From: Escherichia coli
GTDB taxonomy: Bacteria; Pseudomonadota; Gammaproteobacteria; Enterobacterales; Enterobacteriaceae
DNA length: 64,000 nucleotides
Direction: 5' to 3' (one strand)
Assembly (NCBI RefSeq): GCF_024502345.1
Contig: NZ_JALDNN010000001.1
Shown here: piece after piece, positions 7,560 to 38,160 of the stretch
Layout: every line of letters starts with the position of its first letter
Position numbering within the stretch: the stretch's first letter is position 1
Made by a program: the position numbers and the translations under genes
Notes under the pieces: generated by a model
Databases searched by the model: none
What the model saw: the letters and a program-made list of their open reading frames with translations, nothing else
What the model was told of the DNA's origin: nothing

Positions 7560-7588
7560 CTTTGCTGTATATCGAGGCTGTATATCGA

Positions 7589-7629
7589 GCAATGCCATTA
7601 TGTGCATAAAATTGGCATTGCTCTTTTTT
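7589..7629 (+). terminator. Rho-independent terminator downstream of treA
   Basis: Stem GCAATGCCA / TGGCATTGC with a 15-nt loop followed by TCTTTTTT. Confidence 0.55.
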
Positions 7630-7853
7630 CGCCACGAAATGCCCCCCACTCTACGGTCTATGCCTTTATTTTCTTTTATTAGAGAAGATTTTAATTTTAT
7701 TTTATCAATTTGTTAATCATTACACCTCTATTTATATTTTTCGCCACTCCGCCATTCTCCCTGACAATTTTCTTGTGGAACAAAGTGTTATTTAAGCAAC
7801 AAGCAAATCACTCTGTCTCTTTAGACAAATTTTGACATCAAACATGATTTTTT

Positions 7854-7901: not shown

Positions 7902-8924
7902 ATGTCACTAACCAGACGGAGGTTTACACAGATTCTTGCGTCGACGTTGTTCCTGCATCATCTGCCTTCTTTTGCACAATCAGTCAAATTCTGGGCCTCA
8001 CTGACGCTTCCCGAAGCCCAAAACATTACACGCATCGTCAGCGCAGGTGCGCCCGCCGATTTGCTATTGCTGGCTGTCGCGCCAGAAAAAATGGTCGGTT
8101 TTTCCTCTTTTGATTTTGCCCGTCAGGCATTAATTCCATTGCCAGAGCACATTCGCCAGTTACCCAGGCTGGGACGACTCGCCGGGCGCGCCAGCACACT
8201 CTCGCTGGAAGGGCTTATGGCGTTACATCCCGATTTGGTCGTTGATTGCGGCAATACGGATGAAACCTGGATCTCCCAGGCACGGCAGGTTAGCGAACAG
8301 ACACAAATACCCTGGTTATTGCTTAACGGGAAACTGGCGCAATCAGCAGAACAGTTAACAACGCTTGGCAAAACGTTAGGCGAAGAGCATCGCGCCGCAG
8401 AACAAGCCAATCTCGCCAGCCGCTTCGTTGGTGAAGCTCAGGCATTCGCCGCCTCACCCGCCGCTAACCTCCGCTTTTATGCTGCGCGCGGTCCTCGAGG
8501 GCTGGAAACGGGCTTAAAGGGTTCGTTGCATACCGAGGCGGCGGAATTATTAGGTTTGCACAACGTCGCGCAAATAGCCGATCGCCACGGCCTGACACAG
8601 GTTTCCATGGAAAATCTCCTGCGCTGGCAGCCGGATATTATTCTGGTTCAGGAGGCCGTTACTGCAGATTTTATTCGTCGTGATCCTCTCTGGCATGGCG
8701 TGAAAGCCGTTGCGGAACAACGCATCTTATTTTTAAGTGGCTTGCCCTTTGGCTGGCTGGATGCCCCACCGGGAATCAACCGTCTTCTGGGATTACGCAG
8801 ACTTCACGCCTGGCTGGATCCCGCCATCAATCGCCAGTTTAAAAGTGACATGCAGCATTACGCCCAACTGTTCTGGCATTGTTCACTCAGTGACGCCGAC
8901 TATCAAAAATTGGTGGCGAGCTAA
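7902..8924 (+). CDS. Periplasmic substrate-binding protein, FecB/BtuF-like (class III), with twin-arginine-like N-terminus
   Basis: 340 aa; N-terminus MSLTRRRFTQILASTLFL... (RRxF Tat-like motif followed by hydrophobic stretch); first gene of a tightly packed operon. Confidence 0.8.
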   Translation: MSLTRRRFTQILASTLFLHHLPSFAQSVKFWASLTLPEAQNITRIVSAGAPADLLLLAVAPEKMVGFSSFDFARQALIPLPEHIRQLPRLGRLAGRASTLSLEGLMALHPDLVVDCGNTDETWISQARQVSEQTQIPWLLLNGKLAQSAEQLTTLGKTLGEEHRAAEQANLASRFVGEAQAFAASPAANLRFYAARGPRGLETGLKGSLHTEAAELLGLHNVAQIADRHGLTQVSMENLLRWQPDIILVQEAVTADFIRRDPLWHGVKAVAEQRILFLSGLPFGWLDAPPGINRLLGLRRLHAWLDPAINRQFKSDMQHYAQLFWHCSLSDADYQKLVAS

Positions 8925-9922
8925 TGAGAATCGTAAACGGATGTATTTTGCTGCTGGCAGCTATCAGTATCACTTTTGCCGCCGTAAGTGGGGCTTATCA
9001 TCTCGATATGCAGCAACTGCTGGCGCTAATTCTTCGTCAAGAAAATGTTCCTGTGCAGGAACAAATTGTCTTCTGGCAAATCCGCGTGCCGCGTATTCTT
9101 GCTGCGCTGTTACTGGGCGCGGCGCTGTTACTGGGCGCGGCGCTGGCAGGAGCCGGAACCACTTATCAGGGAATGTTGCGTAATCCCTTAGTTTCACCGG
9201 ATATTTTAGGCGTCTCCGCCGGTGCCGGACTTGGTGCCTGCGCGGCAATCCTGTGGGGATTATCCATTGTTTACATCCAGCTGTACGCATTTTGCGGCGG
9301 GCTGATGGTGGTCGCGGGCGTCTGGTTGATTACGCGTCGGGTGACCCGCCACGATCCGATCTTAACCCTGGTGCTGGTAGGCATTGCGTTAGGAACGTTG
9401 TGCGGAGCGGGGATATCGCTAATTAAAACGCTGGCCGATCCTTACACCCAGTTACCGTCAATTACCTTCTGGTTGCTGGGGGGACTGTCCACCGTGACCT
9501 TACGCGATCTCTGCTATGCTGCACCGATCATTCTCATTGGCTCCTTGCCCCTGTTTTTTCTCCGCTGGCGCATGAATTTACTCACGCTTTCCGACGACGA
9601 AGCCCGTTCGCTGGGACTGAACGTGACGCGTCTGCGCTTTGGATTGATTGTCTGCGCCACACTAATCACCGCCAGTACGGTAGCAATAGCGGGCATAATT
9701 GGTTGGGTCGGCCTGGTCGTTCCGCACATTGCCCGCTTGTTGACCGGTCATAACCATCAGCAGCTGTTGCCCATGGCAATGTGTACTGGCGCGATTCTGC
9801 TCCTGCTGACCGATACGCTGGCACGCAGCATTGGAACAACAGAAATCCCACTTGGCATTCTGACCGCTTTTGTTGGCGCACCGTTTTTCCTGCTTTTGTT
9901 GTTACGCGGAGGTCGCCAGTGA
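8924..9922 (+). CDS. ABC transporter permease, FecCD/BtuC family
   Basis: 332 aa, highly hydrophobic multi-TM protein; start overlaps the upstream stop (ATGA-type junction). Confidence 0.85.
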   Translation: MRIVNGCILLLAAISITFAAVSGAYHLDMQQLLALILRQENVPVQEQIVFWQIRVPRILAALLLGAALLLGAALAGAGTTYQGMLRNPLVSPDILGVSAGAGLGACAAILWGLSIVYIQLYAFCGGLMVVAGVWLITRRVTRHDPILTLVLVGIALGTLCGAGISLIKTLADPYTQLPSITFWLLGGLSTVTLRDLCYAAPIILIGSLPLFFLRWRMNLLTLSDDEARSLGLNVTRLRFGLIVCATLITASTVAIAGIIGWVGLVVPHIARLLTGHNHQQLLPMAMCTGAILLLLTDTLARSIGTTEIPLGILTAFVGAPFFLLLLLRGGRQ

Positions 9923-37103: not shown

Positions 37104-38160
37104 GGCTTTGTTGAATAAATCGAACTTTTGCTGAGTTGAAGGATCAGATCACGTATCTTCCCGACAACGCAGACCGTTCCGTGGCAAAGCAAAAGTTCAA
37201 AATCACCAACTGGCCCACCTACAATAAAGCCCTCATCAACCGTGGCTCCATAACTTTCTGGCTGGATGATGAAGCTATTCAGGCCTGGTATGAGTCAGCA
37301 ACACCTTCTTCACGAGGCAGACCTCAGCGCTATTCTGACCTTGCCATCACGACTGTGCTGGTCATTAAACGCGTATTCAGGCTGACCCTGCGCGCTGCGC
37401 AGGGCTTTATTGATTCCATTTTTTCTCTGATGAACGTTCCGCTACGCTGCCCGGATTACAGCTGTGTCAGCAGGCGGGCAAAGTCGGTTAATGTCAGTTT
37501 CAAAACGCCCACCCGGGGTGAAATCGCACACCTGGTAATTGATTCCACCGGGCTGAAGGTCTTCGGTGAAGGCGAGTGGAAAGTCAAAAAGCATGGCCAG
37601 GAACGCCGCCGTATCTGGCGTAAGCTGCATCTCGCCGTTGACAGTAAAACACATGAAATCATCTGCGCTGACCTGTCGCTGAACAACGTTACGGACTCAG
37701 AGGCCTTCCCCGGGTTAATCCGGCAAACCCACCGGAAAATCAGGTCAGCCGCCGCCGATGGCGCTTACGATACCCGGCTATGTCACGATGAACTGCGGCG
37801 TAAGAAAATCAGCGCGCTTATCCCTCCCCGAAAAGGTGCGGGTTACTGGCCCGGTGAATATGCAGACCGTAACCGTGCAGTGGCTAATCAGCGAATGACC
37901 GGGAGTAATGCGCGGTGGAAATGGACAACAGATTACAACCGTCGCTCGATAGCGGAAACGGCGATGTACCGGGTAAAACAGCTGTTCGGGGGTTCACTGA
38001 CACTGCGTGACTACGATGGTCAGGTTGCAGAGGCTATGGCCCTGGTACGAGCGCTGAACAAAATGACGAAAGCAGGTATGCCTGAAAGCGTGCGTATTGC
38101 CTGAAAACACAACCCGCTACGGGGGAGACTTACCCGAAATCTGATTTATTCAACAAAGCC
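37104..38160 (+). mobile_element. IS903-like insertion sequence (IS5 family, IS903 group), copy 1, 1057 bp, no target-site duplication
   Basis: 18-bp terminal inverted repeats GGCTTTGTTGAATAAATC at both ends; internal transposase; flanking 9-mers differ (ACCTTAAGG vs ATCGTGCAC). Confidence 0.9.
37181..38104 (+). CDS. IS903-type DDE transposase
   Basis: 307 aa from a GTG start (VAKQKFKITNWPTYNKALINRGS...); matches the remembered IS903 transposase from Tn903. Confidence 0.85.
   Translation: MAKQKFKITNWPTYNKALINRGSITFWLDDEAIQAWYESATPSSRGRPQRYSDLAITTVLVIKRVFRLTLRAAQGFIDSIFSLMNVPLRCPDYSCVSRRAKSVNVSFKTPTRGEIAHLVIDSTGLKVFGEGEWKVKKHGQERRRIWRKLHLAVDSKTHEIICADLSLNNVTDSEAFPGLIRQTHRKIRSAAADGAYDTRLCHDELRRKKISALIPPRKGAGYWPGEYADRNRAVANQRMTGSNARWKWTTDYNRRSIAETAMYRVKQLFGGSLTLRDYDGQVAEAMALVRALNKMTKAGMPESVRIA

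Follow-up and report, generated by a model that had tools for sequence, protein, structure and literature searches.

An 18-bp in-frame tandem duplication, very probably of recent slippage origin, in the second transmembrane helix of an Escherichia coli FecCD-family permease

Within a 64-kb window of Escherichia coli DNA, by which we mean the whole stretch of 64,000 nucleotides analysed here, a gene for a FecCD-family ABC transporter permease carries two identical, head-to-tail copies of an 18-bp unit where all other E. coli alleles compared carry one. The best explanation overall, and one that we regard as very probable, is a single recent event of replication slippage that left an in-frame repeat in the second transmembrane helix (TM2) and gave rise to a private allele that is neither regulated nor phase-variable. 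Below we describe the array and its gene, the number of units in E. coli and in the wider family, the likely origin of the second unit and its predicted consequence for the transporter, and we weigh this reading against the alternatives.

Results

Anatomy of the array

Tandem Repeats Finder reports one array as the only one in the region, at 9104-9145, with a period of 18, 2.3 copies, 100% matches, no indels and the consensus GCGCTGTTACTGGGCGCG. The 42 bp of the array hold 2.33 perfect copies, that is two complete units followed by the 6-bp start of a third. Unit 1, GCGCTGTTACTGGGCGCG, lies at 9104..9121 on the plus strand and spans codons 61-66 (ALLLGA); it was delimited by Tandem Repeats Finder and by an 18-nt insertion relative to strain XJ34 and five more E. 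coli alleles. Unit 2, at 9122..9139 on the same strand, is identical in sequence and spans codons 67-72, again ALLLGA, while the partial third start, GCGCTG at 9140..9145 on the plus strand, corresponds in single-unit alleles to the downstream copy of a short direct repeat and is the likely site of mispairing. Either of the two complete units may be the newer copy. Codon 61 starts at 9104 and 18 bp amount to six codons; the reading frame is therefore preserved, and translation across the array gives ...VPRILA-ALLLGA-ALLLGA-ALAGAG...

This array is the longest perfect tandem duplication within the window. When the window was simulated 30 times with a first-order Markov model, no perfect tandem repeat of at least two copies with a period of 12-24 arose, and the array is far beyond chance.

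The original prediction, made from the sequence of the window, had described a perfect 18-bp in-frame tandem duplication inside the permease gene, and both the Tandem Repeats Finder result and the frame of the open reading frame at 8924-9922 bear this out. Its account of two back-to-back copies with a partial third start is likewise correct, the third start being the 6-bp GCGCTG, and the peptide that it gave, LLGAALLLGAALAG, maps to residues 63-76. The placement at 9106-9141 with the unit GCTGTTACTGGGCGCGGC identifies the same array offset by two bases, the full extent being 9104-9145. The repeat had also been assigned to the first transmembrane helix, which does not hold: hydropathy analysis places the first hydrophobic segment at residues 1-27 and the second, which contains the repeat, at residues 52-80, and AlphaFold models of both alleles agree, with helix 1 at residues 2-21 and a long second helix that begins at residue 44.

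The permease gene and its operon

The gene that carries the duplication lies at 8924..9922 on the plus strand and encodes a protein of 332 aa (326 aa in other E. coli), identified as a FecCD-family permease through PF01032, PDB entry 2nq2 and its RefSeq orthologue. The match to PF01032 scores 286.1 bits against a cutoff of 26.5 and covers profile positions 2-311 of 311, and the RefSeq orthologue is labelled 'FecCD family ABC transporter permease'; the label 'iron ABC transporter' that RefSeq gives to proteins of the cluster is generic. Against NCBIfam, the permease scores below every equivalog cutoff. The partners expected of a FecCD/BtuC-type importer flank the gene on both sides and are joined to it by overlapping stops and starts. 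Upstream lies a periplasmic substrate-binding protein (7902..8924, plus strand; Pfam Peripla_BP_2 and sequence), whose stop overlaps the permease start (TAATG), and downstream an ABC ATPase (9919..10677, plus strand; Pfam ABC_tran and the same-position RefSeq orthologue), whose GTG start overlaps the permease stop (GTGA). On this homology and gene context, the permease is the membrane subunit of a type II (BtuCD-like) ABC importer.

Three further genes on the plus strand complete the island, all of them intact and of the same length as in XJ34: a SAM-dependent methyltransferase (10687..11499), ModD (11496..12350; TIGR01334, 501 bits against a cutoff of 178.85) and a TonB-dependent receptor (12355..14346). 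The resulting six-gene cluster, 7902-14346, sits between treA and ymgE in E. coli and is accessory, since megablast with the permease gene finds it in 2,139 of 5,426 complete E. coli genomes (~39%). Eight of the matches are located on plasmids. Among complete genomes, the closest permease gene, with 2 nt differences, is that of E. coli O18ac:H14 strain 873.10 (L002), in which the neighbouring binding-protein gene is annotated as frameshifted; the frameshift indicates that the island decays in some lineages. A literature search on this E. coli island, with a poorly specific query, returned no relevant paper.

Among structures in the Protein Data Bank, the permease matches HI1471, FhuB, a hemin transporter permease, HmuU and BtuC with E values from 1e-36 to 8.5e-62. 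The best of these is HI1471/MolB (2nq2_A; E 8.5e-62, residues 4-327 aligned), followed by the next at ~1e-44, and HI1471 leaves a gap of six residues precisely where the second unit lies. The match of the cognate binding protein to MolA HI_1472 (3psa/3psh) is weak and confined to residues 206-287 (about 80 residues, E 5e-8), whereas 4pag, a binding protein of unnamed specificity, matches it far better (E 8.6e-27). The label of a MolBC-A orthologue was considered for the system and not adopted, the binding protein being only weakly MolA-like.

Unit number in E. coli and in the FecCD family

Megablast of the 999-nt gene against all complete E. coli genomes returned 2,140 records, and the matches listed all span 981 nt. 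A shorter query of 171 nt, with the array in its middle, matched 2,139 records, every one of them at 80-90% identity, which corresponds to an 18-nt gap; the top matches, at 89.5% (153/171), are identical to the query save for that gap. One unit is thus found in 2,138 of the 2,138 complete E. coli genomes that carry the permease gene. Six diverse alleles (XJ34, O18ac:H14, O157:H7, Nissle 1917, SCU-485 and Ecol_244), when aligned, likewise show one unit each. Beyond the species, none of 120 family representatives, drawn from Escherichia, Yokenella, Symbiopectobacterium, Klebsiella, Raoultella, Edwardsiella, Shewanella, Providencia and others, has the six-residue insertion, and the length of the stretch is invariant in all of those that span the site.

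Searches for the duplicated state itself gave the same result. The exact 42-mer has no match in GTDB species representatives, a set of one genome per species and hence of limited power, and neither the 42-mer nor a junction-specific 26-mer (CTGGGCGCGGCGCTGTTWCTGGGCGC, which tolerates a TTA/TTT polymorphism described below) has a match in metagenome contigs, in scans of limited or uncertain power. The 332-aa protein is absent from a collection of about 15 billion proteins by exact look-up, as are its alternative-start form and seven versions of other alleles into which we had built the duplication.

The original prediction had proposed that orthologous permease genes be aligned and their units counted, and in every orthologue compared the count is one. 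It had also suggested that copy number may vary between strains. This does not stand: with one unit in all 2,138 genomes and two only here, what we observe is a private allele. Two units with divergent codons in all orthologues would, as the prediction put it, have marked an old fixed feature, and the comparison clearly gives the opposite, with single-unit orthologues and identical units in this gene. An old fixed structural feature, entertained as a candidate, is refuted on the same two counts.

Nearest alleles and recency

When one unit is removed, the protein is identical to P0121, a common E. coli allele found on 429 contigs, and the gene lies 1 synonymous nucleotide from alleles in L008, L009, L010 and L015. 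At one codon B2-type alleles have TTT and both units here have TTA, the pattern expected had one unit been copied from its neighbour once the allele had arisen. The complete genome closest to the window is XJ34, at 99.3% identity over 25 kb; over that distance the two differ by 149 SNPs and by only two indels, the 18-nt insertion and an intergenic change of 1 nt. The latter is a single-base deletion at 7850, in the intergenic region between treA and the binding-protein gene. Ten contigs that encode the exact single-unit protein are 98.7-99.2% identical to the window.

A near-clonal relative without the duplication was sought for dating and none was found, the best complete genome being that at 99.3%, so the event can be dated no more tightly than 'after this allele arose'. 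Unsampled close relatives might share the duplicated allele, which may thus belong to one isolate or to a small clone. Judged from these sequence comparisons, the duplication is derived, recent and private to the strain or its lineage, and is neither a fixed, old feature nor a variable-number one.

Origin of the second unit

The single-unit alleles all read GCGCTG-TTACTGGGCGCG-GCGCTG across the site, so that two copies of the hexamer lie 18 bp apart, with 12 nt between them, at a spacing equal to the length of the unit. Short direct repeats spaced by the unit length are the classic substrate for slipped-strand mispairing. We propose that, during replication of the ancestral allele, a nascent 3' end at the second GCGCTG would have re-paired with the complement of the first, and that 18 nt would then have been copied a second time, leaving two identical units and the retained hexamer. 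This re-pairing and recopying step is inferred from the anatomy of the site and follows the textbook mechanism. The replication-slippage origin put forward in the original prediction is thus upheld by the single-unit orthologues, by the GCGCTG microhomology at 18 bp and by the identity of the units, which extends to the lineage-polymorphic TTA/TTT site. The event is an ordinary slippage mutation of a well-known kind, and its product is a new allele.

Other rare in-frame indels occur in the same part of the gene. The singleton allele P0003 has an extra AG two residues downstream of the array, while P0005 and P0006, also singletons, share at the protein level a 24-residue deletion between two AGAG motifs that removes the RNPLVSPDILG gate loop, and a fourth singleton, P0065, has a larger deletion from the same starting point. 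All four changes start within positions 9140-9230 of the window, permease codons 73-102. Taken together, these indels show that the Ala/Gly/Leu-rich, G+C-rich stretch is mildly slippage-prone, each of the products being rare.

Predicted consequence for TM2 and the permease

The transmembrane domains of type II importers have been described as tightly packed bundles of ten helices (PMC3971661). For the single-unit allele, AlphaFold predicts an all-helical model that comprises about ten long helices. In that model (pLDDT 83.0, pTM 0.84) the second helix is continuous from residue 44 to 79. The model of the duplicated allele has a pLDDT of 76.0 and a pTM of 0.74, with a break in the helix at residue 60 and a pLDDT below 50 for residues 56-62. 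Both runs used the same 57-sequence alignment, and the drop, which is partly due to empty alignment columns at the insert, is a weak indication and not a measure of stability. The score against PF01032 also falls, from 297.6 bits with one unit to 286.1 with two. Both changes are consistent with a disturbed TM2, as weak evidence drawn from models.

The position of the insert offers a rationale for such a disturbance. TM2 continues straight into the conserved RNPLVSPDILG loop that joins it to TM3. In MolB the TM2-TM3 loop is described as the cytoplasmic gate, which has been probed at N93 (PMC4031551). Counted from the HI1471 alignment, MolB N93 corresponds to N87 of the permease described here, 15 residues past the duplication. 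Six added residues would amount to about 1.7 helical turns, or about 9 Å, with a register shift of 240 degrees, and these turns would have to be absorbed by TM2, a helix whose length is invariant in the family. To make room, TM2 would have to kink, or else its conserved RVPR end or the gate loop would have to shift and rotate against the rest of the bundle. On this structural reasoning, it is somewhat more probable than otherwise that the permease is impaired, whether crippled or weakened, within an accessory operon that E. coli can do without; a hydrophobic repeat within a helix could instead be tolerated. The original prediction had suggested that the repeat could affect permease function, and the lower AlphaFold confidence, together with the closeness of the insert to the gate loop, makes such an effect plausible. 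The insertion should leave expression of the downstream genes free of polar effects, as it is in frame and the genes of the operon overlap and are translationally coupled.

Other features of the window

A second perfect tandem duplication, of 13 bp (GCTGTATATCGAG x2), lies in the intergenic region just downstream of the treA stop, at 7564-7589. It is polymorphic, with two units in the window and in L001, L009, L014 and L015, and one unit in L008, L010, L011, L013 and L016.

Further downstream, the window contains two identical IS copies of 1,057 bp in direct orientation, at 37104-38160 and 54991-56047, with the terminal inverted repeats GGCTTTGTTGAATAAATC. Each encodes an IS5-family transposase (NF033579, 357 bits), and the ends appear IS903/IS102-like. 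The copy at 54991-56047 is flanked by a 9-bp target duplication, CCTCTGACG; a comparison of the flanks of the copy at 37104-38160 revealed no matching target duplication, a hint that an IS-mediated rearrangement or deletion took place in the past. For positions 25001-50000, the best E. coli matches come in 3-6 pieces that span 34-49 kb against 25 kb here, so that the window either lacks insertions present in those strains or is rearranged relative to them in the ycgH-nhaB-pdeG-phoQ-purB-umuC region. Numerous additional matches to 25001-50000, including those on plasmids, probably stem from the IS copy.

Discussion

A single slippage event in the recent past of this strain or its lineage would account for the structure of the site, and several other readings of the same allele need to be set against it. 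That the second unit arose from consensus calling or from mis-assembly of a G+C-rich, locally repetitive stretch is the sort of error that a singleton allele invites, and the allele turned up neither in 2,138 E. coli genomes nor in the scanned collections or the set of 15 billion proteins. Assembly errors are, however, usually homopolymer or 1-2 nt indels, among which a perfect 18-nt in-frame duplication precisely bounded by microhomology would be atypical; the assembly does not appear to be indel-prone, given that one other indel only, of 1 nt, separates it from XJ34 in 25 kb, and single reads on any platform span so short a repeat. We therefore consider an artefact of assembly or sequencing unlikely. 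There is next to no likelihood that the repeat is an old, fixed feature of the permease lineage that supports a functional, longer TM2: one unit is present in all orthologues and in all family representatives that span the site, the units are 100% identical in DNA, and removal of one unit brings the gene to within a single synonymous base of widespread alleles. A further candidate is a contingency or variable-number locus, at which frequent changes in unit number would switch transporter activity among strains or within populations. Once two units are present, 24 nt of tandem homology ease the later loss or gain of a unit, and the rare in-frame indels of P0003, P0005 and P0006 in the same stretch point to local proneness to slippage. 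Yet those indel alleles are singletons, one unit is the rule without exception in the 2,138 genomes, and the protein collection holds no duplication-bearing variant; there are just two units here, and a unit of whole codons inside a coding region cannot toggle the reading frame. The 13-bp duplication 1.5 kb upstream, by contrast, is truly polymorphic and common to many strains. A contingency locus is on these grounds extremely unlikely.

Selection could also have played a part. Resistance commonly arises through in-frame indels in transporter genes, and the duplication might have been favoured for inactivating or altering uptake, as protection from a toxic substrate or as resistance to a phage or colicin that uses the pathway. 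The operon is accessory (39% of complete E. coli genomes) and is damaged in some other strains, for instance by the frameshift in 873.10. But neither the duplication nor an equivalent event recurs in other backgrounds, and a neutral or mildly deleterious private mutation fits equally well with fewer assumptions, so that we rate an adaptive change as unlikely. A more elaborate version, for which we see very little likelihood, holds that the repeat is a selected and reversible off/on switch by which accessory TonB-dependent uptake is turned off and, through the precise loss of one unit, on again in the face of a toxic substrate, colicin or phage that enters by this pathway, with TM2 as a hotspot by virtue of its GCGCTG and AGAG motifs.

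If the allele is read, as we prefer, as the private product of one slippage event, its significance is mostly local to one strain. Being unrecorded in the collections searched, it is a possible lineage marker, distinguishable by an amplicon of 171 bp against one of 153 bp. It also represents a natural six-residue insertion mutant of TM2 just upstream of the gate loop, which could inform study of this E. coli island. For annotation, the permease gene should be treated as possibly non-functional despite its intact reading frame.

Comparison with known systems

As a mutation, the duplication closely resembles the duplications attributed to slipped-strand mispairing at microhomology, with perfect head-to-tail copies, a 6-bp direct repeat, a gain of one unit, and relatives that lack the duplicated state. 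Nothing about it is unusual for this class; the unit is exactly six codons long, so that the reading frame and the coupled downstream genes are kept. Its likeness to contingency loci and coding VNTRs extends to the presence of a tandem repeat inside the gene of a cell-envelope protein and to slippage as the process, whereas here there are two units only, the unit is a multiple of three, and the number of units is invariant in 2,138 genomes.

As a protein, the permease shares its FecCD Pfam family with the type II importer permeases BtuC, HmuU and FhuB. Its closest solved homologue is MolB (HI1471), the permease of the MolBC-A molybdate/tungstate importer of Haemophilus influenzae; in both proteins an R-x-PR...GAxL...RNPLV-x-P block surrounds TM2 and the TM2-TM3 loop, and the modD gene in the cluster described here was counted as a further likeness to that importer. 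The two systems differ in that genes for a TonB-dependent receptor and a methyltransferase also belong to the E. coli island, alongside that for a binding protein that is only weakly MolA-like. What distinguishes the permease of the window from MolB, and equally from all other members of the family, is its six additional residues in TM2.
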